64,000 nt of DNA from positions 192,001 through 256,000 of the forward strand of contig JBFWVL010000002.1 in the NCBI GenBank assembly GCA_050246755.1. Direction: 5' to 3'. The notes under the pieces were generated by a model. The model saw nothing but the letters and a program-made list of their open reading frames with translations. It ran no database searches and was not told the origin of the DNA. A program made the position numbers and the translations under genes. Positions within the stretch are counted from its first letter, which is position 1. Every line of letters begins with the position of its first letter. The DNA comes from Bacteriovoracia bacterium. Its GTDB lineage: Bacteria > Bdellovibrionota > UBA1018 > CAIPTA01. Shown one piece after another: positions 2,404 through 53,983 of this stretch.

Positions 2404-2474
2404 AGAAACCTCCGGTGAATAAAGAAAGTGTAGTGGTTCCCCGAAAAAAATCTAGCGCATTAGTGTCCCAGTGC

Positions 2475-3809: not shown

Positions 3810-3821
3810 GGTATCTCCTAG

Positions 3822-37181: not shown

Positions 37182-38300
37182 TCAGAGTTTTAGAAAGTTC
37201 AAAGCCTTCTTCGACCAGCTCGCGGCGAAGGACTCTGCACTAGCTCGCTGGATCTCGGCCAAGACGCCTTTTCCCAGCGCTTTACCGGCCTTAGCGGGCA
37301 GATAGCTCTGCAATACCTTTGCCCCGCCCGGGAAATTTTCCTGCAAACCGGCGAGGGCCCGCGCATAGCCATAGAGGGGGATCTTAGGAGACGAAAGCTT
37401 GGCGAAGCCCTCGAGTAGCGCCTCGGCCACTTCGGCCTTTTCCTCTCCACTAAGCAAGGAGTGCCGGGCGATGGCGGCTCCCCAGGCATCGAAAAAAGGC
37501 CCTACCGGCAATAAAAAATCCCGGCTGCGGCGCAGGCATTTGGGCTTTCGCAGGGGATAGTGGCGGTGGTTCTCGGGTGCCATAAAGGCTTTGTTTAAGG
37601 TTCCGGCCTCGACTAGGGTTTCCTGGGCCGGGCCAAAATCGGCGTGCTTCTCGTGGCCCAGCTTATACACGCGAAGGCGGAGAGGATCATTCGGGGGAAG
37701 CTCCCATTGGTCGATCACGCGATCCAAATCCCCGAGGTTATGCGCGATCAGGGTGCAGCACTTGAGGAGCTCCACGCCCTTACGCTGTTTTTTCAAGGAA
37801 TCGAAAATCTTGGCCTCGAGCAGCAGTTCCTCCACGATTTTTTCCACGAAGGCGGCGGCGATTTCAGGATTGCGGTTTCGGTGCGAGGCGTAGGCGCCAG
37901 CCGCCACGCTGAACCACTCTCCCTGGTGCCCGGAAACGTAGGCTCCTTCCGCCTCGGCGAGGCGAGTGGTTACCGGGCGAAAATCCCAGTTCCGCGATTC
38001 GAGCGTGAGCGCCGCCATTTTCTCCGTGATCTCGAGCGGCAGGCTCTCGTCCCAGAGGTGTTTGCGGATTTGGTTATCCACGTCGGTGGGAACGAAGGTG
38101 GCCACGGTGCCGTAGTGGGCGCAGAGGCAGAGGCGGAAGTACTCGAGGTGGTTGAGCGGGGCAGAGGTATCCGTGCGCACCGCGCTCAGGGTTTGCACAT
38201 AGGGCAAAGACCCAAACTCAGGGGTAAAAAGGAAGGCGGCGGTATTTTCCACGAGAGAGAGGAGAGCGGCGGGCTCGATCCCGCGCCGGGGAGCGTTCAC
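37182..38300 (-). CDS. Hypothetical protein
   Basis: GTG start just after the ferredoxin stop with AAGGA SD; motifs HYGTVATFVPTDVD, SGHQGEWF, IAHNLGDLDR, ENHRH. Confidence 0.75.
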   Translation of the reverse strand: MNAPRRGIEPAALLSLVENTAAFLFTPEFGSLPYVQTLSAVRTDTSAPLNHLEYFRLCLCAHYGTVATFVPTDVDNQIRKHLWDESLPLEITEKMAALTLESRNWDFRPVTTRLAEAEGAYVSGHQGEWFSVAAGAYASHRNRNPEIAAAFVEKIVEELLLEAKIFDSLKKQRKGVELLKCCTLIAHNLGDLDRVIDQWELPPNDPLRLRVYKLGHEKHADFGPAQETLVEAGTLNKAFMAPENHRHYPLRKPKCLRRSRDFLLPVGPFFDAWGAAIARHSLLSGEEKAEVAEALLEGFAKLSSPKIPLYGYARALAGLQENFPGGAKVLQSYLPAKAGKALGKGVLAEIQRASAESFAASWSKKALNFLKL

Positions 38301-38302
38301 GG

Positions 38303-38602
38303 TTATTCCTTCCGAATGGCTTTTTCCACCGCATCCACGAGTGTGTCCACGTCGTCTTTTTTGAGGTCCAGGAACCATTCACCTTTAGGATAGAGCACCG
38401 CCGCGATTCCGCGCTCGCACTGGTCCAAACAGCCTGCGCTATTGATCCTCACGCTGCCCTTGGGAAATCCCTTCGCTTTGCAAGCGTCCTTCACGCGTTC
38501 CCGTAGCTTTTCGGCTCCCTTGGGGCAGCAGCTTTCGCGTTTGCCATTGGGGCCCCGATCGTTGGTGCAAATGAACAGGTGGGCGGTGAATTTGGGTTCC
38601 AT
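38303..38602 (-). CDS. Thioredoxin-like [2Fe-2S] ferredoxin
   Basis: HLFICTN.R...CC, RINSAGCLDQC, VLYP.G.W. Confidence 0.9.
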   Translation of the reverse strand: MEPKFTAHLFICTNDRGPNGKRESCCPKGAEKLRERVKDACKAKGFPKGSVRINSAGCLDQCERGIAAVLYPKGEWFLDLKKDDVDTLVDAVEKAIRKE

Positions 38603-38717
38603 TAGGCGGAGACTAGCATGGCTCCCGGCTCCTCGTGAGGGGAGGAAGAAAAAAGAGGTGGTTTTTCGGGGCACAAATGCCCATAATTTTTAAAGCCACA
38701 CGGGCGCGGGGGTTTTC

Positions 38718-40160: not shown

Positions 40161-40555
40161 GCCTGGACCATCACCAGCGCTTCACCGGTGGCGGCGGGTT
40201 TGCCGTCGGCCTTGAGGGCTTTGGTCTCAATCGTGAGAAAACCTTTTTCTTCGCGGATATTTAGTACCGTGAGCTCGATGATGATTTCTTCGTCCACGAA
40301 AACCGGCGCGGTAAACTTCAAGCTTTGGGTTAAGTAAACGGCGCCGGGGCCCGGCAATTCGGTGGCTAGTGCGCGCGAGATGAGGGCGCCCGTGATCATT
40401 CCGTGGGCAATGCGCCGCCCGAAGCGGGTGGTCTTGGCGAACGCGTCGTCGAGGTGCACGGGATTTTTGTCGCCGCTGAGCTCGGCGAAGTCCCGGATCA
40501 TTTTATCGGTAACGGTTACGCGCACGGAGGCTTTGTCGCCCACTTTGAATTTCAT
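40157..40555 (-). CDS. MaoC/PhaJ-type (R)-specific dehydratase
   Basis: FAELSGD.NPVH.D, IAHG, LPGPG. Confidence 0.92.
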   Translation of the reverse strand: MKFKVGDKASVRVTVTDKMIRDFAELSGDKNPVHLDDAFAKTTRFGRRIAHGMITGALISRALATELPGPGAVYLTQSLKFTAPVFVDEEIIIELTVLNIREEKGFLTIETKALKADGKPAATGEALVMVQA

Positions 40556-40622
40556 TTCATTCTCCCGAAATTTATTTTCTTACCGGTTTGCCCGCGCCCC
40601 GGCAAAATGGCAAGCTGATCTT

Positions 40623-41987
40623 ATGGGGTTGATGCGCTTTTCGTTGATGGGGTTACTATTCCTTTTTTCCGTCCAGCCGGCGGGGGCCGCCGAGTGGAAA
40701 TTTTCGCTGAACGGCGAAACCGAGGTCACCGGCCTGCATTGGCAGGAAAAAGTTTTGCCCGATAATCGGCAGAACCGCTATCTGCTGAACCAGAAGCTGC
40801 CGATGACGTTGCGCTACGGGCGCGCGTGGCGGTTCCGCCTACAGCCGATTGCGCTCTTCGATCCTAATAATATCTCCAAGAGCGAGCGCCTATTCTGGGA
40901 TATCCAGGAGGGCTACCTCCAGTACCAGGCGCTACCCTGGACGGTGCAAGTGGGGAATAATATTTTCACCTGGGGCGATACCGACGTGTTCAATCCGCTC
41001 GACGTGGTGAACCAGCGCCGCTATTTCGATCCCTTCCAGTCCGAAAAGCTCGGCGCCCCCGCTCTGATGGTGAAGCGGGAGTTCGAAACATTTTTCGTGG
41101 AAGCGATTTATATCCCGAAGCAGAGAAAAACGTTATTGCCCGGCGAGCAGAGCCGCTGGCTCCCGCGCGACGTGTATAAAAGCCGCAGTTACCGCGTGCC
41201 GATCGTAGCCGGTGGAGTCACGAAAACCTACAATACCACCCTGAATTTACCGTCGGTGGTGAACTACCATTATATGAAGCCCGAGGAGCGCGACAATGCC
41301 CTCGACAATAGTTTCGGCGGCCGTTTCAAATTCCGTTTTCCCGGTTTCGACTGGACGCTCGCGGCGTTCCAGGGAACCGCTCCCACACCCGCGGTAAACG
41401 TAAAGGAAGTAGGGCTCCTTGGTAATATCGCGATTCTGTCGTCCACCGAAATCTCGGCCACTATGCTGGAGCCCGACCTCACGGTGCAGGCCACGTACTA
41501 TCAGTCGCGCATGGGCGGCACCAGTTTCACGCTCGTGGCCGGAGATTTTTTGGTGAAGGGCGCCTCGGCGTATACTTCTCCCGTAAAGCACGCGGGCGAT
41601 TTACCGGCGAAAACGCTCGAGAACGCCCTTGGCCTAGAGCGCACCTTCAGCGTGGGCAAGGGATCGCTTACCGCCTTGGCGCAGGGAACCTACGTGAAGC
41701 GCGGAGACCGCGTGGACACGAACTCCGTTTCGCTAGCCCGTATGTTCGATCGGGCCGGCATGGGGGCCCTTCGCTGGTCGGCGAGCGAGAAGCTCACGGT
41801 ACTGGCTTCTTACCTGCGCGATATCCGTTACAAAGGCAACGTCGTGCATGCCGACGCTTCCTATAAGATCGCCGATGGCTGGCGCGCCAAAGTGGGGGCG
41901 GATTTTCTTTCCGGCCCCACCGAGACGCCGATCGGTACCTACGGGCGTAACGACCGGATTACTTTGTCTTTGAATTCTCAGTGGTGA
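40623..41987 (+). CDS. Outer-membrane beta-barrel protein (DUF1302-like)
   Basis: Signal peptide; G...F.WG..D.FNP.DVVN motif; C-terminal G.YG.NDRI.L...W. Confidence 0.65.
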   Translation: MGLMRFSLMGLLFLFSVQPAGAAEWKFSLNGETEVTGLHWQEKVLPDNRQNRYLLNQKLPMTLRYGRAWRFRLQPIALFDPNNISKSERLFWDIQEGYLQYQALPWTVQVGNNIFTWGDTDVFNPLDVVNQRRYFDPFQSEKLGAPALMVKREFETFFVEAIYIPKQRKTLLPGEQSRWLPRDVYKSRSYRVPIVAGGVTKTYNTTLNLPSVVNYHYMKPEERDNALDNSFGGRFKFRFPGFDWTLAAFQGTAPTPAVNVKEVGLLGNIAILSSTEISATMLEPDLTVQATYYQSRMGGTSFTLVAGDFLVKGASAYTSPVKHAGDLPAKTLENALGLERTFSVGKGSLTALAQGTYVKRGDRVDTNSVSLARMFDRAGMGALRWSASEKLTVLASYLRDIRYKGNVVHADASYKIADGWRAKVGADFLSGPTETPIGTYGRNDRITLSLNSQW

Positions 41988-43512
41988 ACTGAAGCCCGAG
42001 GTTTCCGCCGCTCTGGAGCTGCCAGTGTTCGGGCACCAGCTTGAGCGCTTTGCCCACCACGAAGGTGGGGAAGGCGAGGGTGAGGCCCTCGGCACTCAGC
42101 GATTCCTTCGCCGCGTCGGCCATAGTCTGGGCGGCGATTCTCTTCGTTGGGTTATACTGAGCCACGTATTGCTTGGCCCAGCTATAGCTCATGGGAAGCT
42201 CGTCGGCGGTAACGAGGAAATCCACTTTCCCGCCCTTTTGCAGCTTCATCTTCGATTGGCCCTGGAGCAGGGTTCTGAACTCCACGTAGGGAGTATAGGT
42301 TCCTTTTACCGGGGCGAACATGCGGATCGCGAGCGGGAGCGTGAGATCACCCGAGATCGTGTCGGTGTCGGTCGCTTTTTCGTTGTCGAAAGAGGGCGGG
42401 CCGTTGGGCACGAAGTTAAAGGCGAAGGTAGTATTGGTCGGGAACTTCATGAGGTCCGGCCAAGCCCAGAATTGTTTCCAGCGCGACTGCATGAATTCCT
42501 GGAACGCAGGAATCTCGTAGGAGCGCAGTGAATATTCCAGCTTGCCCGCAAAGTATTCTCCCATCATCAGCGCGCGGATCGTAGCGAACGGCATCATCAA
42601 TTGAGGAATGGCAGTGCTTTGGGTTGCCGCTTGCGAGGTCTTGGCCGCGGTGCCAACACCGAGCTTAAATTCCTGCACGATGTTTTGGTTGGGGGCTACG
42701 TACGGATACACGAAACGCAGCTGGCCCTCGAGCATCAGGCCGCCGCCGCTCTCGCGGGCGTTTTTGGGCTCATAGTAAAGCTTGAGGTAATCTTTTTGCG
42801 TGGGCAATTCGCGCTCGCTGAGCAGGAGAATGCTGGCGTCTTTGCTCCACTGCACGAACTTAGTTTCCAGCTCACCGCGAACTTGCGCATCGAAATTCTG
42901 GAAACTCGCGAGGGCATTGAGCGCGTACTCACGCACGTTCACGTCTAGGCCTTCGGTGCCGCTGCAGGAAATGCTTTCCACTTCCCAAGCGCCTTGCTGC
43001 CAGTCTGCGTTGAAGGAGGGCATGGAGAGCTTTACTTGTCCGTCGAGCACTTCGGCGCGGATGGTGGCGGCCACGGAGCTAAGGCCCGGCTTGAGGCGCA
43101 AGGAAACGTTGTGGCATTCGGCGTCGAGTTTCACGCGGTAGCGAACGCCATCGATCACGCGGTCGACGATTTGCGAGGCCGATATATTAGCTACCGTGAT
43201 GCGCGCGCCGAGCTGATTGCTGGCGAGGGTCCATTCCCGGGTATTGGCGTTAGTACGCTTGGGCACGGGGAAGGCGTAGTTCATCTCGGCGGTGATTCCG
43301 CTGATCTGAATGGGAAGCCCCGGATTGATCGTGAAGTTGGGAATCGCCACGCTCTGGGTGCCGCTGAGGCTCTGCCAGAAATCTTCGATCACTTTGTCGA
43401 AGAGGCTCTCGGTGAGCTGGAGTTGGAATTCACTTTTCACTTCCCAACGCGCTTGGGCGGCGAGGGGGAGAGCGGCGAGCAGTAACGGCAGCGTGTAAAA
43501 AAGTTTTCTCAT
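41959..43512 (-). CDS. Secreted beta-rich hypothetical protein (possibly a tubular lipid-binding fold)
   Basis: Signal peptide (AQA); helix followed by long beta strands. The fold is an inference only. Confidence 0.65.
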   Translation of the reverse strand: MRKLFYTLPLLLAALPLAAQARWEVKSEFQLQLTESLFDKVIEDFWQSLSGTQSVAIPNFTINPGLPIQISGITAEMNYAFPVPKRTNANTREWTLASNQLGARITVANISASQIVDRVIDGVRYRVKLDAECHNVSLRLKPGLSSVAATIRAEVLDGQVKLSMPSFNADWQQGAWEVESISCSGTEGLDVNVREYALNALASFQNFDAQVRGELETKFVQWSKDASILLLSERELPTQKDYLKLYYEPKNARESGGGLMLEGQLRFVYPYVAPNQNIVQEFKLGVGTAAKTSQAATQSTAIPQLMMPFATIRALMMGEYFAGKLEYSLRSYEIPAFQEFMQSRWKQFWAWPDLMKFPTNTTFAFNFVPNGPPSFDNEKATDTDTISGDLTLPLAIRMFAPVKGTYTPYVEFRTLLQGQSKMKLQKGGKVDFLVTADELPMSYSWAKQYVAQYNPTKRIAAQTMADAAKESLSAEGLTLAFPTFVVGKALKLVPEHWQLQSGGNLGLQFTTENSKTK

Positions 43513-43590
43513 GGGGCTATTTTCTCACTTCGATAGCTAAAGTTAGTAAGAACCTAAAGTGCCTACAGGAACGAACCGAGTAGTAGCTGA

Positions 43591-43629
43591 TTGACTCGCT
43601 CCATTATTAAATGTTAACATGGGTTAACA
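43591..43629 (+). promoter_or_regulatory. sigma70-like promoter overlapped by a palindromic operator
   Basis: TTGACT (43591) and TAACAT (43615); inverted repeat TGTTAAC-atgg-GTTAACA at 43612-43629. Confidence 0.55.
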
Positions 43630-43682
43630 ATATTGCAATGGGCGACGATATTAAATTTTAAGAAAACCCGAGAGCCCGACAC

Positions 43683-46600
43683 ATGAAAATTAGGCAAATT
43701 ACTGAAGTTACTAAGTTTGTTATGAAAAATGCCAAGCGTTTTTCGATTTTAGTGATTTTGGCTTTTTTGGGTTTGGGGGCCATATCCGCCTTATCACTCT
43801 CTAAGCTCAAGACCGAATACTCCATGCGTCAGTTCTTGCCGCCCCACCATAAACTGATGGAGACCGACGACGCCCTCAAGGCTCGTTTCCAGCTTCCCGA
43901 CCTCGAGCCCTTCTTCGCCCTCATTAGTATTCCTGAAAAAGAGACCGGCAACTGGTTCCAGCCCGAACGCATGGCCAAGCTCAAAGAAATTACCGAGGGC
44001 CTCAATAAGTATGAGGGCGTGAGCCGTGCCATCAGCTTAGCCACGATCGAGGGAGCCTCGTCGAGCCCGGAAGGAATCACCGTGGGGCGTCTGCTCGATC
44101 TCACGCCCGCGAAGGATTGGGAAAATCGCGTGCTTAAAGATCCTATCCTCAGTCCGCACCTGATCACCGCCGACGGCCGCACCGCCGTACTCGCCATGGT
44201 CAACCAAGTGGGCCTCACGCAGAAAGCCAGCACCGCAATTCAGGACGAAACCCGCGTGCGTATCCAGGCCGCCTTTCCTGGCTACCAGCTTCGCCTCGGG
44301 GGCATTCCCGTGGTGCAAACCGAAATGAGCCAAATTCTCGGCAAAGAACTAAAAAATTTCCTCGTGCTCTCGCTGCTCGCCAGCCTTTTCACCCTCATGC
44401 TTTTCTTCCGTTCTTTCTCGAGCGTGCTGATCCCGCTTATCCTATTGTTACTCGCGAACTTCATCAGCTTGGCTTGGATGGCGTGGACGGGCACCGCCTT
44501 CACCGTACTTTCGAGTACGCTGCCCGTGCTCGTGGCGCTCACGGTAGTTTCGATGAGCGCGCACACGATGCTGCGCTACGCTTCGGACTGGCAGCTCGCG
44601 CTCCGCTCCCAAGAGAACCCGAACCCGATCCGCGTGCTTTTCCATTCCTACGCCGGACTGCTATTGCCGAACTTCCTCACGGCCGTAACCACCTCCATCG
44701 GATTTTTCGCGATCGCCTTCGCTAATATTCCCCTTGTGCGCCAATACGGGATCACCGTGGGGATTTCCATTTTCGTTTGCTGGTTCACCGTGATCGGCGC
44801 CTTGCTCCCGCTGCTCGTTCTCTTTCCCGTGCCCCAGGTGCGCGACTGGACCGAAAAGCGCGCCAGCTGGGCCCTCTGGATTACCGCTCACAGCCGAAAA
44901 GTGGTTTTCGCCGTGGTGGCTCTCAGCGCAGTTTGCTTATTTTTCGGGCGTCAGCTCAACTGGTCGGCGCAGTTATTCGACGATCTTCCCAAGGGCCACG
45001 AGGCCCGCGCCACCACCGAGTTCGTGGATTCCCATCTTGGCGGCATGATTCCCCTCGATATCGTGGTGGAGCGCGATGAGGAAAATGCCTGGAACGATCC
45101 CTCGGCTCTCGCTAGATTCGATGAGCTCGCTAATGATTGGCGCAAGCATCCCGCCGTTGGCTCCGTGACCGGCCCGCAGGATTTCATTCGCGTGGCCGGT
45201 AAAGTGCAGGGGCGGGGCCTCGCTTCCACCCGTCAAGAGGCCGCTGAGTACGCGTTCCTCTACGGATTCGCCGCCGATAATCCTTATAAGCAATACGTAA
45301 CGTCGGACGGCCGCGCCGCCCGCATCAACTTGCGCTTGCATGATATCCCCGGCGATAAAATGGCCTTGGTGGTGCAGCAGCTCACCGAGCAAACCCAGGC
45401 GAAATTCCCCGGCTGGAAGGTAACGCCCGGCGCGATGGCCACCACCGTGCATGTGCTCAATAACGAACTTTGCCGCGAATTGATCTGGGGTTTCTGGCAA
45501 GCCTTGCTCTTAATCGCCGTCGTTCTTGCTTGTGTATTCCGCTCCGTGCGCTGGACGATCGCGGCGGTACTGCCGAACTTGGTTCCCGCGTTCTTACTTC
45601 TTGGCGCGCTGTACCTAGGCGCTACGCCGATTAAGCCTGGCATCGCCCTGATCTTTTCGATCGCCCTCGGTATATCCTTCGACAATACCGTGTATCTCAT
45701 GGGGCGTTTACGCCTTCTGCGGGACCGCTCCGCCACGAAAAAAATCATGGTCGCCAAAGCCTGGTACCAAGAAGGCAATCTCTGTCTCTTTTCCTCGCTC
45801 GCGTTGTCTTCCGGTTTTCTTGTATTCTTGGCCTCGTTCTTCTCGCTCAATCAGCAGTTCGGTATGTATATGCTCATCGCCATCCTGGGATCCCTCGTCG
45901 GAGATCTCGTGCTCATGCCCGCAATGCTTGCGGCCTTCCCCCGGATGCTGGAGAATAGAGCCAAACCCGAACTTCAAAAGGAGAATGATATGTCTGAGAG
46001 AGCGATCGCCGCCGGTATTGCACTGGCATTTTTCACCAGCAGTTTCGCCTACGCTGCGGTGGATTTGAAAGACGCGAAGTCCATTCTGAAAAACGTAGAG
46101 AAAAATATGTCGGCTACCGACGAAGTGGCCAACGTGAAGATGACCATCACCGAAGCCGACGGCACGAAAAAAGATCGTGGCCTGCAGATCAGCCGCAAGG
46201 GCAAAGACGCAGACCAAAAAGTAATGGTGCGCATGAACGCTCCCGCCGATCTAAAGGGCACCGCGCTGCTCTCCGTTTCGAAGGGCAAATCCAGTGACCA
46301 GTGGCTCTATTTGCCCTCGAGCAAGCAGACGCGCCGGATCCAGAGCGGTAACCGCAGCGGCGGTTTCATGGACTCCGAGATGAGCTACGAAGACATGGGC
46401 ACCAACGCCGACGCGAAATTCGAGAGTAAAGTTCTACCCGAAGAGACGATCGCCGGCCGCAAGTACTCCGTGATCGAGAGTATTCCGAAGGGCGAGAGCT
46501 CTTACGGCAAAGTGGTGACCTGGGTAGACCAGGGAACGTACCTCGTGGGCAAGATGCAATACTTCGACAAGTCGATGAAGCCGCTCAAGGTGACGAACTT

Positions 46601-46766
46601 CACGGGTTACAAGCAATACGACAAGGGAGTATGGCGCGCGCAAAAAGTGCAGGTGCAGAATCTGCAAAATAAACGCGGCACCACCCTCGAGCTTTCCGAC
46701 CTGAAACTTAACAAAGGCCTCGACGACGCCGAATTCACCGAGAGCGCCCTCACCGAAGGCGATTGA
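43683..46766 (+). CDS. MMPL/RND family transporter fused to a C-terminal LolA-like (outer-membrane lipoprotein-sorting) domain
   Basis: Two RND repeats (TTSIGF, PN..P, GI..DNT); C-terminal P.D.KGT..L, QWLYLPS...RRI, F..SEMSYED. Confidence 0.88.
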   Translation: MKIRQITEVTKFVMKNAKRFSILVILAFLGLGAISALSLSKLKTEYSMRQFLPPHHKLMETDDALKARFQLPDLEPFFALISIPEKETGNWFQPERMAKLKEITEGLNKYEGVSRAISLATIEGASSSPEGITVGRLLDLTPAKDWENRVLKDPILSPHLITADGRTAVLAMVNQVGLTQKASTAIQDETRVRIQAAFPGYQLRLGGIPVVQTEMSQILGKELKNFLVLSLLASLFTLMLFFRSFSSVLIPLILLLLANFISLAWMAWTGTAFTVLSSTLPVLVALTVVSMSAHTMLRYASDWQLALRSQENPNPIRVLFHSYAGLLLPNFLTAVTTSIGFFAIAFANIPLVRQYGITVGISIFVCWFTVIGALLPLLVLFPVPQVRDWTEKRASWALWITAHSRKVVFAVVALSAVCLFFGRQLNWSAQLFDDLPKGHEARATTEFVDSHLGGMIPLDIVVERDEENAWNDPSALARFDELANDWRKHPAVGSVTGPQDFIRVAGKVQGRGLASTRQEAAEYAFLYGFAADNPYKQYVTSDGRAARINLRLHDIPGDKMALVVQQLTEQTQAKFPGWKVTPGAMATTVHVLNNELCRELIWGFWQALLLIAVVLACVFRSVRWTIAAVLPNLVPAFLLLGALYLGATPIKPGIALIFSIALGISFDNTVYLMGRLRLLRDRSATKKIMVAKAWYQEGNLCLFSSLALSSGFLVFLASFFSLNQQFGMYMLIAILGSLVGDLVLMPAMLAAFPRMLENRAKPELQKENDMSERAIAAGIALAFFTSSFAYAAVDLKDAKSILKNVEKNMSATDEVANVKMTITEADGTKKDRGLQISRKGKDADQKVMVRMNAPADLKGTALLSVSKGKSSDQWLYLPSSKQTRRIQSGNRSGGFMDSEMSYEDMGTNADAKFESKVLPEETIAGRKYSVIESIPKGESSYGKVVTWVDQGTYLVGKMQYFDKSMKPLKVTNFTGYKQYDKGVWRAQKVQVQNLQNKRGTTLELSDLKLNKGLDDAEFTESALTEGD

Positions 46767-46785
46767 TCTCTAGTTTGTGTTCTTA

Positions 46786-46820
46786 AGAGCCGGTCACCTA
46801 TAAGGGTGGTCGGCTTTTTT
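46786..46820 (+). terminator. Intrinsic terminator of the MMPL gene
   Basis: AGAGCCGGTCACC...GGTGGTCGGC followed by a T-run. Confidence 0.75.
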
Positions 46821-46861
46821 GTGCCTGTTTTGCACGCGCATGCTGCCGCCCCGTCCGCTGG

Positions 46862-47040
46862 AATACCTCTGCCCCGGAGAGTGCCTTCGCTTTTGCGAAT
46901 ACCTCTGCCCCGCGCCAGCAACTCTGCTCCTTAAAATACCTCTGCCCGGTGTGGGGGCAATCACCATCGTGTCAGATTTTCGTACGCGCCCACGTCTGCA
47001 TACCGAACACCGCTCTCCTAAAATACCTCTGCCCCAGAGG
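46862..47040 (+). repeat. Four direct copies of AATACCTCTGCCC(C) upstream of the HUH/Y1 gene
   Basis: Core 13-mer at 46863, 46899, 46936 (12/13) and 47023; unique spacers of 22 and 23 nt, then a longer gap. Confidence 0.9.
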
Positions 47041-47058
47041 CTTTACCCCACGCGGAAA

Positions 47059-47074
47059 TGGCATGCTTCCCGCT
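47059..47074 (+). promoter_or_regulatory. Candidate sigma54 promoter of the HUH/Y1 gene
   Basis: TGGCATGCTTCCCGCT, GG-N10-GC; predicted +1 lies about 2 nt before ATG 47087. Confidence 0.35.
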
Positions 47075-47086
47075 CGGCCCGCCCGC

Positions 47087-47605
47087 ATGAAATTCCAAGT
47101 ACGTAAATGGAGTCCGCTCGAACACGGAGGTATCGTACGCAAGGGCCAGCGGAAACGCCGCCGCTATATGGATGTGAGTCGAACCCTGCACTTGGTGATG
47201 CGTTCTACTAAGGCCAGGGGCCACCGCAGTTTTATTAACCCGCGCAATAAGGGCGTGATCCATCTGCTGCTCATCGATACGGCCAATCGCTACGAGATAA
47301 AAATCTATAACTACGTGAACGTTGGCAACCATCTGCACCTTCACGTGCGCGGATGGAAACGCAAAAATCTCCAGGCATTCTTGAAAGTATTCCCGCAAAG
47401 AGTGATGTTCCACGTAACGGGCGCACGCAAGGGTCGCCCGCGCGGCAAGTTTTTCGATGAGATCGTCTATTCGCGCGTGGTGAACTGGGGCGGCGATTTC
47501 AAGCGCGTGAAAGAATATTTTTGGAAGAACACGCTCGAGGCGCTGGGATTCAGTCACGCCACGATCGTGAAGTGGCGCAGGGCCGCGCGGATAGTGCCGC
47601 CCTAA
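47087..47605 (+). CDS. HUH/Y1 tyrosine transposase-like protein (IS200/RAYT superfamily)
   Basis: LHLVMRS strand; HUH motif NVGNHLHLHV; YSRVV; catalytic-like EYFWKN; no tnpB adjacent. Confidence 0.85.
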   Translation: MKFQVRKWSPLEHGGIVRKGQRKRRRYMDVSRTLHLVMRSTKARGHRSFINPRNKGVIHLLLIDTANRYEIKIYNYVNVGNHLHLHVRGWKRKNLQAFLKVFPQRVMFHVTGARKGRPRGKFFDEIVYSRVVNWGGDFKRVKEYFWKNTLEALGFSHATIVKWRRAARIVPP

Positions 47606-48408
47606 CGGACCAGCGGAAAGAAATCGAAGCTATATACGTAGGCCGTTTCTTCGGGAGACTTAGCGATCACGTCTTGGTTCTTTTTTAGATTTTCCAGCAG
47701 GGAAACTTTCACGCGCTCGGCATCTTCCCGTGAAAGGCTCACGCAGGCCGAGTAGTGCATGTCGTTGGTGCCCGCCGAGTCCATCGACTGAATTGAAAAT
47801 AGCCGCCAGTTGCTGTGCAGGTTCTTGATCAGCGGATCGGTGGCGGGTAGGTGCACGTGGCTCGGGCCGGCGGAGTAGTGGGTGCCCTTAAGCTTGAGGA
47901 TCCCGCAACCCACGAGGAAATCCAATTTCTCGTCGAGTTCGGCCGGATGCACGCGCAGGGCCTGGCTGAGCGCGAGTTTGGTCTGAAAAGACGGGATCGA
48001 GCAGAGTACGTGAATTGCGGCGTAGAGGTGGCTCGAGTGGAATCGCGCGGTGTCGCTCGCGGAAATACCGGTAGAGGGCCGCACTACTTTTGAGGGCGTA
48101 AGTTTCTGCGCGCGTTTAGCGGCGAGTAGAGTTTGAAATCGCTGGCGGGCTTTTGAGGAGCGGGCGCGGTCGCGGCAGACTAGGAGCGCGAAGTACTCGG
48201 CCTCGTCCTCGTCGTGACGAAGAAAATCATTCATGAGCTCGGCCTGTTCGGTGCTAAGGTCGGCTTTTCCCGAAAGAATTTGCGATAAATAGGTAGTGTG
48301 AACGGCCAAAGCGCGGGCCGCATCGGCGCGCATGCCCGAGCGATGACCCTGCTCGTCAAATCGTAACTTAAGGTAATCGCGGTAGTTTTGGGATTCGTAG
48401 ATTTTCAT
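47602..48408 (-). CDS. TIGR02147/DUF4423 family HTH protein
   Basis: IYE..NYRDYLK; N-terminal HTH (TYLSQILSGK..LS); LH.NWR; C-terminal YVYSFDFFPL. Confidence 0.85.
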   Translation of the reverse strand: MKIYESQNYRDYLKLRFDEQGHRSGMRADAARALAVHTTYLSQILSGKADLSTEQAELMNDFLRHDEDEAEYFALLVCRDRARSSKARQRFQTLLAAKRAQKLTPSKVVRPSTGISASDTARFHSSHLYAAIHVLCSIPSFQTKLALSQALRVHPAELDEKLDFLVGCGILKLKGTHYSAGPSHVHLPATDPLIKNLHSNWRLFSIQSMDSAGTNDMHYSACVSLSREDAERVKVSLLENLKKNQDVIAKSPEETAYVYSFDFFPLVR

Positions 48409-48507
48409 ACCTGTGCCCTCGAGGTGTAGAGTTATTCTCTTATTTCAACCTGATGATTTAGTAAAATAATCTTTTCGCGCTTGTGGCCTGCACGTATAAA
48501 CAGTCTC

Positions 48508-49545
48508 ATGATGAAACTCATTTTGGTTTTGGGAATTTTCGGCGCGCTCCACGCACAGGCCGGCGTGATCAACGGCGGCGGGGGCAAAGGTATTCTCTGC
48601 GTGAACCCCGACGGCAGCCGCACGGTGGAGAGCCTCGATCGCTACGAAGCGAGGATCGTTTGGCGCTACTCGGTGCCCGAGAGCAAGGATTTCGACGCCG
48701 AGTTTTTGCGGATGATGTCGAGGGCCCACTATGCTTTCAATGGGAACGCCCACCAAGCGCCCGGTCCTTATTCGGCCAAAGAGCACGAAGAATTTTTGTT
48801 GCTGCTCAAGGTATTCCAGGCCCAAATGAATTTTCTTCCAGTAGGCACTCACCTCAAACCCACCGATGACGCCGGGGAAGTGGTGATTCCGCCCGCAAAC
48901 TGCGCCATCACGCAGGTGATCCATTACCTCGATGAAACCGAACGTACCGGGCAGATCCTGGTAGACAAAGAATACTGGGACCTTCTCTCCCCGCAGGATC
49001 AAGTCGGTTTTTTCATGCATGAAGTGGTTTACAAAGATTTTCGCACTTCCGGCGAAACTTCCTCTCTGCGCACCCGTAAACTAGTGGGCCGTTTGCTTTC
49101 CAGCGAGGTGTATCCAAATCCTTATTCTCCACTCTGGGGAGCGCCCAAGATGCTGCATTGCCTGGGCAAGATGGACGATTATGGATGGGGAACTTCCAGC
49201 GGGCTGGATTTTTACGTAGTTCCTGCTGTGGATAAGCCGGGCCGCAATGCGGCTTTGCTCGTGTTCACTACCATCGGCGACGACGGCATGATGGCCGCCA
49301 CCACGGCGCTCAGTCCTTTCGAGTACGAAAGCTTTACTGGTGATCCGCAGTACGCCAGTTACGGGTCGGCCAGCTTGTCGGTGAATTCATTTTATGGTCC
49401 GCGCAGCCTGGTGCTCAGGATGGGGGGAGAAGGAGCTGGCTCTCCGCCGCCGCAGCCTTCCCTGCGGAAGATGTTTATGCGCTTCGATCGTAAAGGACAA
49501 ACCCAGGAAACGGAGTTTTCCTGCCAACCCGAGGAGAGACAATGA
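48508..49545 (+). CDS. Secreted hypothetical protein with a GGGG motif and HExxY
   Basis: Signal peptide then AGVINGGGG; W..L...DQ..FFMHEVVY; divergent from the TIGR02147-like gene. Confidence 0.8.
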   Translation: MMKLILVLGIFGALHAQAGVINGGGGKGILCVNPDGSRTVESLDRYEARIVWRYSVPESKDFDAEFLRMMSRAHYAFNGNAHQAPGPYSAKEHEEFLLLLKVFQAQMNFLPVGTHLKPTDDAGEVVIPPANCAITQVIHYLDETERTGQILVDKEYWDLLSPQDQVGFFMHEVVYKDFRTSGETSSLRTRKLVGRLLSSEVYPNPYSPLWGAPKMLHCLGKMDDYGWGTSSGLDFYVVPAVDKPGRNAALLVFTTIGDDGMMAATTALSPFEYESFTGDPQYASYGSASLSVNSFYGPRSLVLRMGGEGAGSPPPQPSLRKMFMRFDRKGQTQETEFSCQPEERQ

Positions 49546-49925
49546 AGTACTTGCTCATCGCCATGCTGTTCGCCAATACCGTTTTCGCCGCCGATAATTG
49601 CGGTCCGCAGGAAGGAAAATTCGGCTGGGAAAAAGCCGTGAAAGTAGGGGACGTAGTCACCTTCTTCAACCCGCGTCTCAATCTCGACGGGGTGAATCTC
49701 ATCCCGATCGCTTTCGACGACGGCGTGACCGAGTCCTTTTCGAACGGCGTTTGCAAAGCCCTCGGCAAGAAGACGGGTACCGTAGGCCAGATTACTCGAG
49801 CGTACGAGCTGGAAACCACACTCGCGGTTTTCATCGATGCGGCGGGCCGCGTGGCGTATATGCATGAAATTGGAAGAAATTCTGGATCCTATACTGGAAT
49901 CGTAAACTCGATTTCCTGCCGCTAG
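49542..49925 (+). CDS. Small secreted hypothetical protein
   Basis: Signal peptide (VFA); ATGA overlap with the upstream gene; SD GGAG. Confidence 0.75.
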   Translation: MKYLLIAMLFANTVFAADNCGPQEGKFGWEKAVKVGDVVTFFNPRLNLDGVNLIPIAFDDGVTESFSNGVCKALGKKTGTVGQITRAYELETTLAVFIDAAGRVAYMHEIGRNSGSYTGIVNSISCR

Positions 49926-49957
49926 TCATTACATAAAATTTAAGGAGAACGATAACC

Positions 49958-50437
49958 ATGAAATTTCATGCAACGGCACTGCTTTGCCTAGTCCTAACTG
50001 CCTGTGGAGCGGAGGAGCCTAGAGACCAAGAAATAAGCACCGATACTGCCACTATCACCGAGAACCTCGTTGCGGCACCGATGCCCGGCGATGGACGGCT
50101 AAACCAGACAGAGTTTAAGTCGCTCCATTGCGTGGCGCTTGTGAGTTCCTCGAATAACCCGGCGCGGGTTTTGGCGAGCGTGAAGTGCGATGGGTTCGGC
50201 GTCGTAAGCGGGGACTACGTGCTCGAATGCCAAGACAACAGGCTCTGCGTTCAGCGGCAATCCGTGCACGGAGGGCAGACAGAAGCGGTTTTTTCCGAAA
50301 ATTTCATGCAGATGATCCTGACGATTTCCGACTCGAATGGAAAGAAAGTTTATAGTGATAACTTCGTTTGCGAGAAGGGTTGTGCGCTGGAATTTCAGCC
50401 GCCTTCGTTCGAGAAAGGCACTCAGCCACGGCCCTAA
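49958..50437 (+). CDS. Cys-rich lipoprotein
   Basis: AAGGAG SD; lipobox LTAC. Confidence 0.78.
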   Translation: MKFHATALLCLVLTACGAEEPRDQEISTDTATITENLVAAPMPGDGRLNQTEFKSLHCVALVSSSNNPARVLASVKCDGFGVVSGDYVLECQDNRLCVQRQSVHGGQTEAVFSENFMQMILTISDSNGKKVYSDNFVCEKGCALEFQPPSFEKGTQPRP

Positions 50438-51675
50438 AGATTGCGAAATGCCTCGGGCGTGCCCATGCCCCTGATTTCGTCGCCGGCCTTGGTGCTCCCA
50501 TGGGTATGGAATTCCCGCCGCCGTTTTCGGTAAGAAACACTCACGCGCTCAAACAGCGAAATACCGTGCATTTCGGCCGGGGCAGGCGAAACCGCCGGCC
50601 CGCGCAGATCGCTCAGCGGGTTCATCGCGCCCGGCGAGATTTTTTCAATCGAAGCTAGGTGGCGCGCCCCTACGTCTACGGGCGCGGAAGCACCGAAGGC
50701 CTGCGCGTAGCCTTCCGAAATACCTCTGCCCCGAGGCGAGGGTGCTAGGGGAGTGGCCTCCCTAGTAGGCGCCAAAACCTGTGCCCCGGCTAGTAGGGCA
50801 GGTCCGCCGCTAGCGTTGAACCTAGTCGACTGGCCCGCACTCGTCACGGATACCTCTGCCCCAGAGGCGGGCGTCACGCGGCCCTCCAGCGCTTTCGCCA
50901 CCACGGGGCCGGGGTCCGCGAGCGTTTCTTCGACGGCGTTGCGTTTGGTTCGATCCAGTTTTCCCACGAACGGTGATTCGTTCACGATCGCCGCAAACGG
51001 CTCGCCAGCAAAAGCACGCCGCATGATCTCGCCGTTCTCGTAGCCAAGGTAGACGGATCCGTCGGGGAAGCGCTCCGATAATTCTTTCCACCCGAGCGCG
51101 TTCACCGCCGTGGACCTAGAAACCCCCGAACGGCTTTCTTCCGGCGCCAATGTGGGCACCATCACCGGGGCGCCGCTCGCCATTTCGGTGAGCCCAGTCA
51201 TGGGAGAAACCAGCGCGTCGGTACGCGTTTTCGTAGAGTAGCAGCCCGTCATCGACGAAGCGTATTGGCTGCTGAACGCCATCCAGTCGGTCATCGTGAA
51301 GCCATCGGCGCCCCAGGAAGTGCATTCGCCCGCGCCGTCGCGGGTAAGGCAATTGGCGGCGTTCCGGAGGGCTTGGCTTAGTCCCACGCATTCCGGGCTT
51401 TTGGGAGAAGCCGCGCAAACGGAATCCGTGCGCCCGCCTACGTTCGTGCCCACGCAGCCTCCCATTACGTTGGAGCCCATCACGAAGGCATTGGCTTGGG
51501 TGGACTCGGAATCCACATCTTCTCTATAGAGCTGGTTATTGTATTTCGTTACCTCGTACTCGTCGGAGCGTTTGGAATCGCCGGCGCCGGTCGTTTTACC
51601 GTTCTCGCCAACTAGATCGTTCGCGGCGAAGCCAAGGCCGGGGCAGAGGTATAAAATTAAGAAGAGGCGAATCAT
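50434..51675 (-). CDS. Secreted hypothetical protein, SIFExV...Y family
   Basis: Signal peptide; Cys-rich N-domain; EIMRRAFAGEPF; C-terminal SLFERVSVSY; contains three exact copies of the 13-mer. Confidence 0.8.
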   Translation of the reverse strand: MIRLFLILYLCPGLGFAANDLVGENGKTTGAGDSKRSDEYEVTKYNNQLYREDVDSESTQANAFVMGSNVMGGCVGTNVGGRTDSVCAASPKSPECVGLSQALRNAANCLTRDGAGECTSWGADGFTMTDWMAFSSQYASSMTGCYSTKTRTDALVSPMTGLTEMASGAPVMVPTLAPEESRSGVSRSTAVNALGWKELSERFPDGSVYLGYENGEIMRRAFAGEPFAAIVNESPFVGKLDRTKRNAVEETLADPGPVVAKALEGRVTPASGAEVSVTSAGQSTRFNASGGPALLAGAQVLAPTREATPLAPSPRGRGISEGYAQAFGASAPVDVGARHLASIEKISPGAMNPLSDLRGPAVSPAPAEMHGISLFERVSVSYRKRRREFHTHGSTKAGDEIRGMGTPEAFRNL

Positions 51676-52015
51676 AGTTCCGTGCCCCCGCGATTCACCA
51701 GCTCGCGCACATCTTTGGGCTCGGATTTTTTTGGCAGGCGCTTGATATAGTCTTCCATGCCCCGAAGGTTCGGCACCTGCCGCTGGTAGACGGTGCTCAC
51801 CCGGTCAAAGAGCGTGAGGTCGAGGCCGAGGGAATAGGGATTGTGCTTGAGCGCGCGCACGAAGTTTCCGTTGCTTGCGGGCCTGGGCGATACCTCTGCC
51901 CCGGAAGAGGTGGCCGGTTCGCGATTAGCGGTGCTGCCAATGATGATCGCGCCGTAGCCGCTATCGGGTGCGCCCCAGCGCCGGGTACGCTTGCTAGCCG
52001 AAATACCTCTGCCCC
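50720..52015. repeat. Intragenic copies of ATACCTCTGCCCC
   Basis: Exact copies at 50720, 50850, 51890 and 52003 (+) and 51640 (-); a 2-mismatch copy at 50775; a further exact copy at 38158 (-). Confidence 0.9.
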
Positions 52016-52625
52016 CGAGGTGGGTGGTCTCGGCCAGCGCGTCGGCGGGGGTGTCCACCACGGGGTAGGGAGTTTTCGCGGCGAGCTCCATGGTGTCCTG
52101 CTCGTGGGCGGGAATCTGCGTCCACATCGGCGAGGAGCTCAGTACGGACTCAAAACTTTCGCCCTCGAGGGTACGGCGCAGGATGCTTCCTTCGCGTAGT
52201 CCGAACGAGCTCGCGCCTTCTTCGAGGGAGGCCAGGAGGGCGCGGAAATTGGGATCGGCGAGCGCTTCCTGGGCACCGGAAGAATCGTTGTTGCCATACT
52301 GGTTGCGCACGCACTGGTGAAATACCGCGAGGTAACCCGCCGCAACCGATACCCACTGCGACTGCGTATTTTGGCGATACGCGTAGGCTAGGCAGGCCTC
52401 GCCGGCCCGCGCGCGGCACTGGTCTTTGCGGAGAGCATTGCGGAGGGCGAGCTGCATGCCCACGCAGGCATCGGCTTCGTGGTCGCTGGCGCAGTCGCCG
52501 TCGAAGCGGCCGCCGATCGCGGTTTCGATGCAGGAGAGCGTGGGTTTGGCGCTCGCGCCGGAGCGCAGAGGTTTTGCCTCCGCCGCGGTAGTAGCCAGGA
52601 GCAGGATGAAAACGAAGCTGTTCAT
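51672..52625 (-). CDS. Secreted hypothetical protein, SIFExV...Y family
   Basis: Signal peptide; Cys-rich N-domain; SILRRTLEGESF; TLFDRVSTVY. Confidence 0.8.
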   Translation of the reverse strand: MNSFVFILLLATTAAEAKPLRSGASAKPTLSCIETAIGGRFDGDCASDHEADACVGMQLALRNALRKDQCRARAGEACLAYAYRQNTQSQWVSVAAGYLAVFHQCVRNQYGNNDSSGAQEALADPNFRALLASLEEGASSFGLREGSILRRTLEGESFESVLSSSPMWTQIPAHEQDTMELAAKTPYPVVDTPADALAETTHLGGRGISASKRTRRWGAPDSGYGAIIIGSTANREPATSSGAEVSPRPASNGNFVRALKHNPYSLGLDLTLFDRVSTVYQRQVPNLRGMEDYIKRLPKKSEPKDVRELVNRGGTEL

Positions 52626-52626
52626 C

Positions 52627-53745
52627 CTAGAACTCGAGCGCGGCCGTGCCCTTTAGGTCGAAGATCGGCCGCGGAGCATCCGCTTGCTCGCGTTTCACGC
52701 CGAACATGAGAGGCGTCTTTTTATGGTACTGCGCGCGCACCATTTCGAAGATGCTCCGGCTGCTGATCCCGTTGCGATCGAGAGCCGCTTGCACTTCGGG
52801 GCTGATGCTGCCGTCTTTGGTGCCGCCACCCAGCGCCACGCCGCCGCCGGTATCTCCGGCGCCGGGCTTCCCGAAGAGCGAATCGAAGTCAGTGGTGGGG
52901 GCCGCGGAATTGATCTTCCGGTCACCACCGCTGGCGCTATACGCGCCTTCGCCAGCGAGGTCCTGGGCGTTGAGGCCGAGCCGGTCCATCACTTCTTCGC
53001 CGGTGAGGGGATTGGTATTGGCCATCGTGGAATCAATCATCTTCTGGAGCTCGGATTCCGATTTTCCGATTTTTGAAGAGCCGGCGAGAATTTCCGCGGG
53101 GCTTTTGCCCGCGTTCAAGCCATTGATGAGGTCGTCGCGGCTCAGGCCGGTTTTGTTTTCGAAGTCGTTGAGAATCTCCCCGATTTTTCCGCCATTGCGA
53201 GCGAGGGCCGGGTCGATTTTGATCGAGCTGCCGTTGCTCTCGTTCGACAAATTTCCGGGGCCAACGCTTTTTACGCTCTCGGCGGTGGGGCCGAGGTTAT
53301 TCGCGTATCCGCCGGCCTGCTGTCCGTTCTTACGCATATTGCTGGCAGCGGCGAGGGCGGCCATTCCGGCCATCATCAGCGCGATCCCCGCGGCCATGAG
53401 TGCCATACCGGGAGCCACGGTGGGAGGGCTCGCCATCATCGCGGCCCCGGCCGCCATCATTGCCATACCGGCGGCGATCGCCGCCAGGCCGAGGCTAGTG
53501 GAAGAGCTATCGCCTTGCTGATTGAGCTTGTTCGCGTCGTTCTGGTGCTGGAGCTGGGTCACGGTCGGCGCGGGAGGAGTGGGCATGGTGCTGGTGAATT
53601 TGTTGGCATCGGTTTTGGTGCTGGTGGAGCCGATATTCACGTCTCCCACGCTCACGCCGGCGGCCATGGCGTCTTCCACGCAAATATCGGCGGACGAAGT
53701 CCACAGAACCAAGGCGACAATCAATGTCCAAATGCCTAATTTCAT
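52627..53745 (-). CDS. Secreted protein with an Ala/Gly/Met hydrophobic hairpin, SIFExV...Y family
   Basis: Signal-like N-terminus; hairpin LGLAAIAAGMAMMAAGAAMMASPPTVAPGMALMAAGIALMMAGMAALAAA; SIFEMVRAQY. Confidence 0.82.
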   Translation of the reverse strand: MKLGIWTLIVALVLWTSSADICVEDAMAAGVSVGDVNIGSTSTKTDANKFTSTMPTPPAPTVTQLQHQNDANKLNQQGDSSSTSLGLAAIAAGMAMMAAGAAMMASPPTVAPGMALMAAGIALMMAGMAALAAASNMRKNGQQAGGYANNLGPTAESVKSVGPGNLSNESNGSSIKIDPALARNGGKIGEILNDFENKTGLSRDDLINGLNAGKSPAEILAGSSKIGKSESELQKMIDSTMANTNPLTGEEVMDRLGLNAQDLAGEGAYSASGGDRKINSAAPTTDFDSLFGKPGAGDTGGGVALGGGTKDGSISPEVQAALDRNGISSRSIFEMVRAQYHKKTPLMFGVKREQADAPRPIFDLKGTAALEF

Positions 53746-53907
53746 ACGATACCCCCATTGGATGGACGCGGCTCGTCCCCGATCCAATAATCCCTATTCT
53801 TTTAATCGACTATCTGTGTGAGTTTCTTTAGAAAAAGGTCTAAAAGCGGGTGGATTTATATGGTAAAAAGTCGCCATTCCAAGATTAAGGAAAAGTCCTT
53901 AGATTTT

Positions 53908-53983
53908 GCCGATGTAGCTCAGTTGGTAGAGCAGCGCTTTCGTAAAGCGCAGGTCGCAGGTTCGAGTCCCGTCATCGGCTCCA
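53908..53983 (+). tRNA. tRNA-Thr(CGT)
   Basis: GCCGATG acceptor stem; anticodon arm GCGCT-TTCGTAA-AGCGC; TTCGA loop; encoded CCA. Confidence 0.95.

Follow-up and report, generated by a model that had tools for sequence, protein, structure and literature searches.

The TnpA-Y1 superfamily of HUH nucleases includes the two groups that most resemble the locus described here, the TnpA proteins of IS200/IS605 elements and the RAYT (TnpA-REP) proteins that accompany REPs. In the classification of Quentin et al. (2018; PMC6006769), class 1 TnpA-Y1 enzymes carry the motifs DH[VI]H and Y---Q and class 2 enzymes carry Y---NP; the portion of that survey compared here also describes Y1 enzymes as acting on the lagging-strand template and places in-frame REP insertions in loops and linkers on record. 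The same portion, citing De Nocera et al., reports atypical, weakly structured flanking motifs without GT[AG]G, detected by manual inspection only, for subclasses 2.6 and 3 and for TIRYTs, and RAYT groups 1 and 4 are credited with low repeat numbers of 12–14 occurrences (PMC5581495). Low-copy and atypical flanking repeats are, on these accounts, already known for some TnpA-Y1 subclasses (PMC6006769, PMC5581495). We have analysed a window of 64,000 nt from a Bacteriovoracia genome (G000; 3.55 Mb, 95.7% complete; contig JBFWVL010000002.1, positions 192,001–256,000), in which four copies of a 13-nt repeat, the box, precede a gene for a Y1 HUH protein. Related boxes stand in the same orientation before most homologues in three of four clades, and box array, leader and open reading frame (ORF) form a unit, bounded on the right by the stop codon of the ORF, which has moved between loci and given rise to several copies within genomes. 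Tentatively, and at a level that falls short of probable, we read the box as the putative DNA site of the Y1 enzyme itself, overlapping the promoter of the gene and sometimes copied nearby, in a low-copy, non-palindromic arrangement resembling a REPtron.

The array lies after an MMPL/LolA-like transporter gene (43683–46766; all coordinates are positions in the window) and before the small + strand Y1 gene (Table 1). The 13-mer AATACCTCTGCCC occurs here without mismatch at 46862, 46898, 46935 and 47022, always on the + strand, and the start-to-start intervals of 36, 37 and 87 nt agree with a first-pass annotation of the window, which had reported four direct copies with the fourth 87 nt after the third. 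With up to two mismatches allowed, the window holds 18 matches against 1.28 expected; 18 was attained in none of 100 shuffles, so the array is real and a chance origin is ruled out. The stretches that follow the four boxes (22, 24, 73 and 52 nt as cut) are mutually unrelated and each is unique in the genome, and tandem duplication of a 36-nt unit is rejected for this reason. The first-pass annotation had placed the motif between a terminator of the MMPL gene and the Y1 gene. Four copies are indeed there, but eight more with at most one mismatch lie elsewhere in the window; as for the terminator, an inverted repeat with a T run can be read by eye at ∼46788–46812 but is missing from the results of a computed scan. 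The palindrome noted at copy 4 exists as a hairpin, with a 6-bp stem and a 3-nt loop (CCTCTG-ccc-CAGAGG) in place of the CCTCT-gcccc-AGAGG first proposed. Folded as single-stranded DNA, copy 4 reaches −4.8 kcal/mol (z −4.39; equalled by 1 of 200 shuffles), and no significant fold was found for copies 1–3 in the same shuffle test.

Two kinds of spaced repeat come to mind for such an arrangement. Iterons are short, direct, spaced sites at origins used by HUH Rep proteins, and those of rolling-circle plasmids, geminiviruses and circoviruses resemble the array in being non-palindromic sites beside an HUH gene, with a small hairpin at the copy closest to the gene. The Reps, however, belong to other HUH families, and the array is chromosomal, collinear in a second strain and without any sign of a replicon. 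That strain is represented by a contig from an independent run (X3), which is ∼93% identical and collinear over 43000–53945 and contains the Y1 locus; it has 24 other letters in place of 46839–46896 and thus one repeat unit fewer. Another run (X2) covers the stretch in short pieces only. The second possibility is that transcripts of the array are processed to give small RNAs, as happens for CRISPR or guide RNAs. The regular repeats, the unique spacers of 22–24 nt and the difference of one unit between strains would suit this proposal. CRISPR repeats are 23–50 nt long, however, whereas the box has 13–14 nt; three of the four copies have no stable fold, no spacer has a second match in the genome, a single box is the rule among homologues, and neither cas nor tnpB genes were found. 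An Rfam search gave no match to the array, its lone hit being a chance microRNA match outside it (E 0.068), and a known RNA family was dropped on that ground. We consider a small-RNA array scarcely credible.

The protein encoded behind the array has 180 aa if translated from 47063, the form in the protein collection, or 172 aa from 47087; most homologues have ∼170 aa. The HUH (NHLHL) and tyrosine (EYFWKN) motifs already recognised in the first-pass annotation correspond to N81-H82-L83-H84 and Y144, and in an alignment of 24 homologues N81, H82, R130, Y144 and N148 never vary, with H84 and K147 retained in no fewer than 90% of the sequences. The family motifs in this alignment are NH[LI]H, F[FW]D and Y-x-W-K-N (the tyrosine motif being Y-[FIL]-W-K-N followed by T, A or R), together with a conserved basic N-terminal arm, HGG..R.G.RK..RP. 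In an AlphaFold (AF2) model with a pLDDT of 83.5, the HUH motif lies on strand E82–89 and Y144 on helix 136–152. A Foldseek search with this model gave 29 PDB hits at E ≤ 1e-3; the hits listed at this threshold are chains of IS608, ISDra2, IS200 and other IS200-like transposases, with the TnpA proteins of IS608, ISDra2 and IS200 at the top (E ∼5e-5). The best superposition is on an Escherichia coli RAYT, 4er8 (TMq 0.57, rmsd 2.8, E 1.2e-3).

Sequence searches place the protein at greater distance. The Pfam family Y1_Tnp (PF01797) scores 14.7 bits, under the cut-off of 23 (E 0.034), a PDB search by sequence profile returned only weak matches to ISDra2 and Sulfolobus TnpA (E 0.056–0.6), and an NCBIfam scan assigned the protein to no family. 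This score falls below the Pfam gathering cut-off, and 13 of 24 relatives reach E ≤ 0.01 (best 4.2e-6); the protein is a single-domain Y1 HUH protein and a divergent member of the TnpA-Y1 superfamily. Its relatives are numerous, a profile search giving 2022 representative clusters when the threshold is E ≤ 1e-3 and 355 when it is E ≤ 1e-30, and almost all named records are from Bdellovibrionota. G000 itself encodes one paralogue of 30% identity and one other Y1_Tnp gene. The TnpB zinc-ribbon domain (PF07282) was not found in the G000 genome, and neither cas nor tnpB genes were found among 15 neighbouring ORFs scanned against Pfam, in keeping with the first-pass statement that both are missing.

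The box is a trait of the family. Loci that encode homologues were gathered in equal number from genomes and from metagenomes, 80 of each and 160 in all. A positional count over 87 non-redundant loci (at least 36% identity, loose core pattern, 50-nt bins) gave 27, 22 and 12 forward core matches in the three bins that precede the gene (coverage 78, 77 and 77 loci), as opposed to 0, 5 and 4 reverse matches in the same bins and a background of 0–4 per bin. Alignment of 58 proximal boxes yields the consensus aaAWAMCATTGCCCCa, in which positions unconstrained by the search pattern are conserved as well, for example A at −4 in 55 of the 58. When homologues are sorted by a quick maximum-likelihood tree of 129 proteins, an oriented box is present within ∼150–160 nt upstream in 67/77 members of three clades and 1/52 of the fourth, counts in which a few box labels are doubtful pattern matches. 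The variants follow the clades (CTYTG in that of G000, and CATTG, TATTG and CACTG), and their labels require 29 changes on the tree compared with 62.2 when shuffled, a value as low being reached in 0/200 shuffles. This pattern reflects linkage and inheritance rather than co-evolution. The homologues have related flanking repeats of their own, a point that the first-pass annotation had proposed to check, and paralogues within one genome carry different variants.

Most homologues have only a single box. A counterpart of the G000 array is found in G003, a genome of the same genus that encodes the nearest genome homologue (59–60% protein identity): four forward copies of ATACCTTTGCCCCG precede the gene, and the two arrays can be aligned at boxes 1, 2 and 4, with diverged spacers between. 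Elsewhere, boxes are found in wider arrangements. In G002, 4 of 13 matches with at most one mismatch lie within 10.8 kb beside the Y1 gene, a rare variant, ATACCTTTGTCCC, occurs twice, at the Y1 gene and 4.4 kb away, and a second paralogue (G002:C30) has an inverted near-copy 1.7 kb downstream. In G035 (locus L018), three forward boxes stand before the Y1 gene and an inverted box ∼1 kb after it, and the other copies in that genome precede further Y1 paralogues. G004/G036 have seven copies of their own variant TTACCACTGCCCC on five contigs, most of those examined in the extended form TTACCAYTGCCCCnnATATAG. In G001, no homologue was found and box matches are at background only.

Many homologue loci also have unrelated short tandem repeats (units of 7–14 nt, 3–13 copies) just 5′ of the box or after the gene. 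They were seen at L095, L096, L002, L017, L028, L101, L128, L130 and L099, examples being a 14-nt unit repeated 5 times at L096, a 7-nt unit 13 times at L130 and an 8-nt unit 10 times at L017. They may indicate where the unit has its edges.

The limits of the unit are evident from paralogues and from comparison of neighbourhoods. Within two paralogue sets (L095/096/098/100 and L010/014/015), each from one genome or one metagenome, the copies are 85–92% identical from box to stop codon and unrelated beyond. The G003 unit fills an intergenic gap exactly: the stop codon of the neighbouring gene is followed after 8 nt by the first box, and the Y1 stop codon abuts that of the next gene. In G004, the unit lies between the same two neighbour genes in the opposite orientation, with forward boxes upstream and an inverted box downstream. 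The matching gap in G000 (1987–3822) contains two other genes and no box, and the G000 unit is located 43 kb from it, after the MMPL gene. This variable gap separates a 494-aa gene (502–1986) from a 241-aa gene (3822–4547). Apart from the locus shared by G003, G004 and two metagenome contigs, no conserved neighbour gene of Y1 was found.

The present position of the G000 unit can also be compared among relatives. The MMPL gene of G002 and of G005 forms a direct convergent pair with the orthologue of ORF 51672–52625, and in G001 and G004 a homologue of ORF 50434–51675 follows within 0.6–0.9 kb of the MMPL gene. Because the MMPL gene nearly adjoins homologues of these ORFs in four genomes of the same genus, the stretch ∼46767–50700 is an insertion relative to G002, G005, G001 and G004. 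This extra segment of ∼3.9 kb comprises the array, the Y1 gene, a TIGR02147 helix-turn-helix (HTH) gene and three small ORFs whose products look secreted; a second cluster of boxes (50719–50861) stands at its right edge. Distant members of the clade are ordinary multi-copy elements, as illustrated by a 694-bp element with 96–99% identity at five loci of one genome. At L030–L033 and L068, from one Pseudobdellovibrionaceae genome, a multi-copy Y1 element has a further ∼1.4 kb upstream in common and a sharp right end, and the L030 copy has a 30-nt insertion inside the element.

A unit that begins at a box could equally have landed beside one. IS608 inserts 3′ of TTAC, and the left end of an IS200/IS605 element is always adjacent to its target; by analogy, the Y1 unit might insert just 3′ of pre-existing boxes, in which case solo boxes would be empty targets and arrays the product of repeated visits. 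That homology between paralogues begins at the box or a few nucleotides from it, and that G000 and G004/G036 have solo boxes with no Y1 gene nearby, would be expected under such a scheme. However, chance could not supply a 13-mer target many times over (by rough estimate ∼4 copies with at most one mismatch per genome and no clusters), all four boxes of the array moved together with the gene between the G000 and G003 loci, and the variable site at 1987–3822 in G000 has no solo box. We think targeting of pre-existing boxes improbable.

In G000, boxes also occur beyond the array. The whole genome has 8 exact copies of the 13-mer, 6 of them within the window; at up to one mismatch there are 19, of which 12 fall within 15 kb around the Y1 gene (37312 to 52002). 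A 12-mer count gives 12 in G000 and 0 or 1 in each of 30 relatives' genomes. A genome-wide count had been called for at first pass, and it reveals enrichment near the Y1 gene in G000 with the motif absent or at background in these relatives. Eight of the 12 local copies are outside the array (Table 1), all in tolerant parts of reading frames, and the same is true of every one of the ten obtained by adding two copies with two mismatches (50774 and 52563). Two of the ten are in loops of ORF 37182–38378, five in linkers, two in signal peptides and one, the 48582 copy, in a Gly-rich segment of ORF 48481–49545 that follows its signal peptide. The inverted placing of the 48582 copy beyond the Y1 gene recalls the arrangements at L018 in G035 and at G002:C30. 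The five linker copies are in Ala/Pro/Gly-rich segments of ORFs 50434–51675 and 51672–52625 that cannot be aligned with orthologues; the cluster at 50719–50861, for instance, falls in a non-conserved C-terminal linker (residues 272–319) of the former. Since the boxes inside ORFs occupy different reading frames, they are not protein repeats.

Two features of these copies extend past the 13-mer. Some pairs are identical over 18–19 nt, such as that of 38159 and 50845–50862, and the + strand copies from 47022 onward share C(A)GAGG(C/T) as well as the box. Stems of 4 bp or more that close on the box occur in 6/12 local copies, compared with 8% when flanks are random, and in 0/7 copies elsewhere in the genome.

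The local clustering invites a regulatory explanation, in which the boxes are operators of the adjoining HTH protein (TIGR02147/DUF4423) or of another host factor over a 15-kb zone. In its favour, the HTH gene is next to the Y1 gene, and sites on either strand are gathered within 15 kb. The TIGR02147 gene, however, has no counterpart among 173 neighbour ORFs at other Y1 loci, and the box follows the Y1 gene everywhere; in addition, most local copies are intragenic and not in promoter regions. A regulon of this kind strikes us as very improbable. Because the TIGR02147 gene adjoins the Y1 gene only in G000, it is probably outside the Y1-box system, and as a conserved partner it is rejected on the 0/173 count.

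Table 1. Boxes and genes of the Y1 locus and its surroundings, in window coordinates
Feature	Position	Strand	Remarks
Box copy 1 (AATACCTCTGCCCC)	46862..46875	+	0 mismatches; most distant from gene; missing in ∼93%-identical strain
Box copy 2	46898..46911	+	0 mismatches
Box copy 3	46935..46947	+	0 mismatches; next base G, not fourth C
Box copy 4 with hairpin	47022..47040	+	0 mismatches; closest to gene; 27 nt to ATG 47063
Y1 HUH (TnpA-Y1 superfamily) gene	47063..47605	+	Alternative start 47087; stop overlaps stop of convergent gene
Convergent HTH/DUF4423 (TIGR02147) gene	47602..48408	-	Adjoins Y1 gene in this genome only
Box copy AATACCTTTGCCC	37312..37324	+	Variable loop of ORF 37182-38378; length unchanged relative to two orthologues
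Box copy GATACCTCTGCCC	38159..38171	-	Indel-prone loop of ORF 37182-38378; 18 nt identical to 50845-50862
Inverted near-copy AATACCTTTGCCC, 1 mismatch	48582..48594	-	∼1 kb downstream of Y1 gene
Second cluster, three boxes	50719..50861	+	50719 exact; 50774, 2 mismatches; 50849, 1 mismatch
Box copy, 1 mismatch	51641..51653	-	Signal-peptide codons of ORF 50434-51675
Two boxes	51889..52014	+	51889, 1 mismatch; 52002 exact; linker residues 204-246 of ORF 51672-52625

ORFs 50434–51675 and 51672–52625 are weak paralogues (E ∼1e-6) with signal peptides, a Cys-containing N-terminal part and a common C-terminal patch (LFERVSVSY and LFDRVSTVY, respectively), and no Pfam family was found for either. A tRNA-Thr (CGT) gene (53908–53983) stands 1.3 kb to the right of the last box-like copy, and the stretch from the MMPL gene to this tRNA gene, mostly hypothetical secreted proteins without a Pfam family, has an island-like look.

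Two questions have to be weighed for the proposal that the box is a site of the Y1 enzyme: (i) could the box be no more than the promoter of the gene and (ii) does the family behave as expected of an enzyme with its repeat. On the first question, the position of the nearest box makes it very probable that it overlaps the core promoter and the transcription start, and a plain promoter is a serious rival for the very reason that the proximal box sits where a core promoter would be. In its full form, this alternative takes the box to be a −10-like element (TAnnnT or TAnnTTTG) with a GC-rich discriminator, transcription starting just after GCCCC; host RNA polymerase would read it, a host regulator perhaps taking part, and it would be kept because it travels with a mobile gene, and the extra copies would be functionless duplicated fragments of a promoter. 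Such a promoter alone could account for conservation of the nearest box. TAnnnT is a −10 consensus, and the G003 box TACCTTTG fits it. Box-to-ATG distances cluster at 0–6 nt (15/58), which would make the transcripts leaderless or nearly so, and at 27–35 nt (16/58); the start codons behind these distances were chosen by the analyst and are uncertain, and the G000 value of 27 nt holds if the start is 47063. In the clade with TATATT/TATACT boxes, a TTGAC-type −35 element (at least 5/6 matches) is found 16–18 nt upstream in 11/73 boxes, as against 0–5 at nine control offsets, and the JANMPT copies have TTGCCA-17-TATACT-GCCCC 7 nt before the ATG.

Other observations fit a promoter less well. The G000 variant, TACCTC, lacks the final T, a simple scan of 46700–47700 found no sigma-70-like site, and no −35 element with at least 5/6 matches was found among boxes of the ACCATT or ACCTYT clades, the latter including G000. 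A sigma-54 or extracytoplasmic function (ECF) promoter, considered by eye, was dropped, the GG/GC spacing being one base short and TGG being present only in copy 1. A promoter alone fails to explain four features: (i) the invariant GCCCC, the best-conserved part of the box, which stands downstream of any −10 element; (ii) the four-box array, kept across species despite diverged spacers; (iii) the inverted copies downstream of the gene; and (iv) the local spread in G000, with eight additional near-exact copies within 15 kb, on both strands and in coding linkers. We regard an exclusive promoter role as unlikely, though it is the main rival and has to be taken seriously.

On the second question, several findings weigh against the box as the enzyme's own site, alongside the distance clusters and −35 elements just described. 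To our knowledge, every characterised Y1 enzyme reads hairpins, and the box has no hairpin family-wide, a stem being formed in 11/104 boxes compared with 13.8 in a flank-shuffled control. In the five JANMPT copies, the repeated unit begins ∼95 nt before the box rather than at it, and its end again coincides with the stop codon. On the downstream side of the gene, no right-end element was found to be conserved, similarity ending at the stop codon, and an inverted copy right after the stop codon is present in only 3/85 loci. In G003, there is no spread of the box past the array: exact copies of ATACCTTTGCCCCG are confined to its four positions, and matches with one mismatch (19 compared with 10 in the control) are near background. 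Finally, a box that is physically linked to the gene would track the protein tree whatever its role.

With these points in view, the recognition-site proposal can be set out as follows. The Y1 HUH protein would be a nuclease-ligase acting on single-stranded DNA, from a large TnpA-Y1 subfamily found mainly in Bdellovibrionota. The box, of 13–17 nt (here RATACCTCTGCCCC), would be a fixed cis element on the 5′ side of the unit and the putative recognition site of the enzyme. We infer that the enzyme may bind or nick the box and that it may be the agent by which the box is copied. Since the nearest box overlaps the core promoter, binding there would also control expression, and the extra upstream boxes may serve as repeated binding sites. 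In the G000 lineage, the nearest box would have gained its 6-bp hairpin, and tags of ∼20 nt (box plus C(A)GAGG) would then have been copied to nearby tolerant DNA, namely intergenic DNA, linkers, variable loops and signal peptides, much as in a young, low-copy REP family. A more ambitious version, in which the Y1 family reads a linear, non-hairpin box of 13–17 nt, moves as array plus ORF and writes ∼20-nt tags into neighbouring DNA, including linkers and loops, seems to us rather doubtful.

Comparison with IS200/IS605 elements bears on this proposal from the side of the enzyme. IS608 and ISDra2 TnpA are the top fold matches, the gene lies just inside its left cis element, and distant clade members are true multi-copy elements. 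Elements of the IS200/IS605 family are expected to act on the lagging-strand template, and the GC skew of G000 agrees: G is in excess on the + strand over the contig as far as ∼330 kb, which puts the array on the presumed lagging-strand template. This is weak support for a site of the Y1 enzyme. The sign of the skew changes at ∼320–360 kb of contig C2, outside the window and ∼90 kb from the Y1 gene, and the switch may mark the replication terminus. In other respects the unit departs from these elements. The protein has NHLH and Y..KN instead of DH[VI]H and Y...Q; subterminal hairpins and a right end are lacking, the conserved unit stopping at the stop codon and only copy 4 having a significant hairpin; tnpB was not found; the box is 13–17 nt long rather than a target of 4–5 nt plus hairpin; and, in contrast to the distant clade with its 96–99% identity, G000 has no near-identical copies, only one copy, the 30%-identical paralogue and one further Y1_Tnp gene.

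The Y1-box system is most like a RAYT with its REPs, yet it lacks the testable features that define REPs. Like a RAYT, the protein is ∼170 aa long, single-domain and superposes best on 4ER8; the gene is low-copy and flanked by a lineage-specific short repeat, with different variants at paralogues of one genome; and repeat copies lie in tolerant gene regions, as described for REPs (PMC6006769). On the other hand, the foot of the box is RATA and not GT[AG]G, which together with the lack of a family-wide hairpin bears out the first-pass view that this is not a canonical REP. Boxes are mainly in one orientation upstream rather than in inverted pairs on both sides, they stand at promoter distance from the ATG, and they number tens of copies at most, near the gene (8 exact and 19 with up to one mismatch in G000; 4 in G003). 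From class 2 RAYTs, as far as these are described in the portion of PMC6006769 compared, the protein differs in having Y-x-W-K-N without the proline of Y---NP and F[FW]D rather than W[QE]. Judged by such motifs, it fits neither class 1 nor class 2 of Quentin et al. (2018).

The atypical subclasses are the remaining point of comparison. Subclasses 2.6 and 3 and the TIRYTs resemble the box family in their weakly structured flanking motifs without GT[AG]G; the descriptions in PMC6006769 place them in Bacteroidetes, Planctomycetes, Acidobacteria and Proteobacteria and give them YIH[QN]NP or YV..EQ. They are set apart here by these descriptions, and some overlap with the box family may exist. No description of this Y1 family or its box was found in the literature searched, a comparison to which the supplementary motif list of PMC6006769 did not belong. 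The first-pass annotation had inferred a 'distinct nuclease-repeat system'. A specific link between Y1 enzyme and repeat is borne out, but 'distinct' is overstated, because the protein is a member of the TnpA-Y1 superfamily and similar low-copy or atypical repeats have been described.

The origin of REP-like repeats and their relation to RAYTs are unsettled, and the known cases are old, high-copy and hairpin-based. The present case offers a large, undescribed Y1 subfamily whose cognate element is short, oriented, mostly unstructured, low-copy and located at the promoter of the gene, together with one lineage, G000, that has a hairpin gain and local copies, some of them in coding linkers. If the box is only a promoter, it would be an unusually conserved one on a mobile gene and of modest interest. 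Should the box prove to be acted on by the enzyme, this would represent an early stage in the birth of a repeat family, and a Y1 enzyme with a long linear site would be of interest for HUH tags and single-stranded DNA tools. Were the more ambitious version true, it would mean local, enzyme-driven seeding of repeats, remodelling of neighbouring coding sequence and a REP-like family at its birth.

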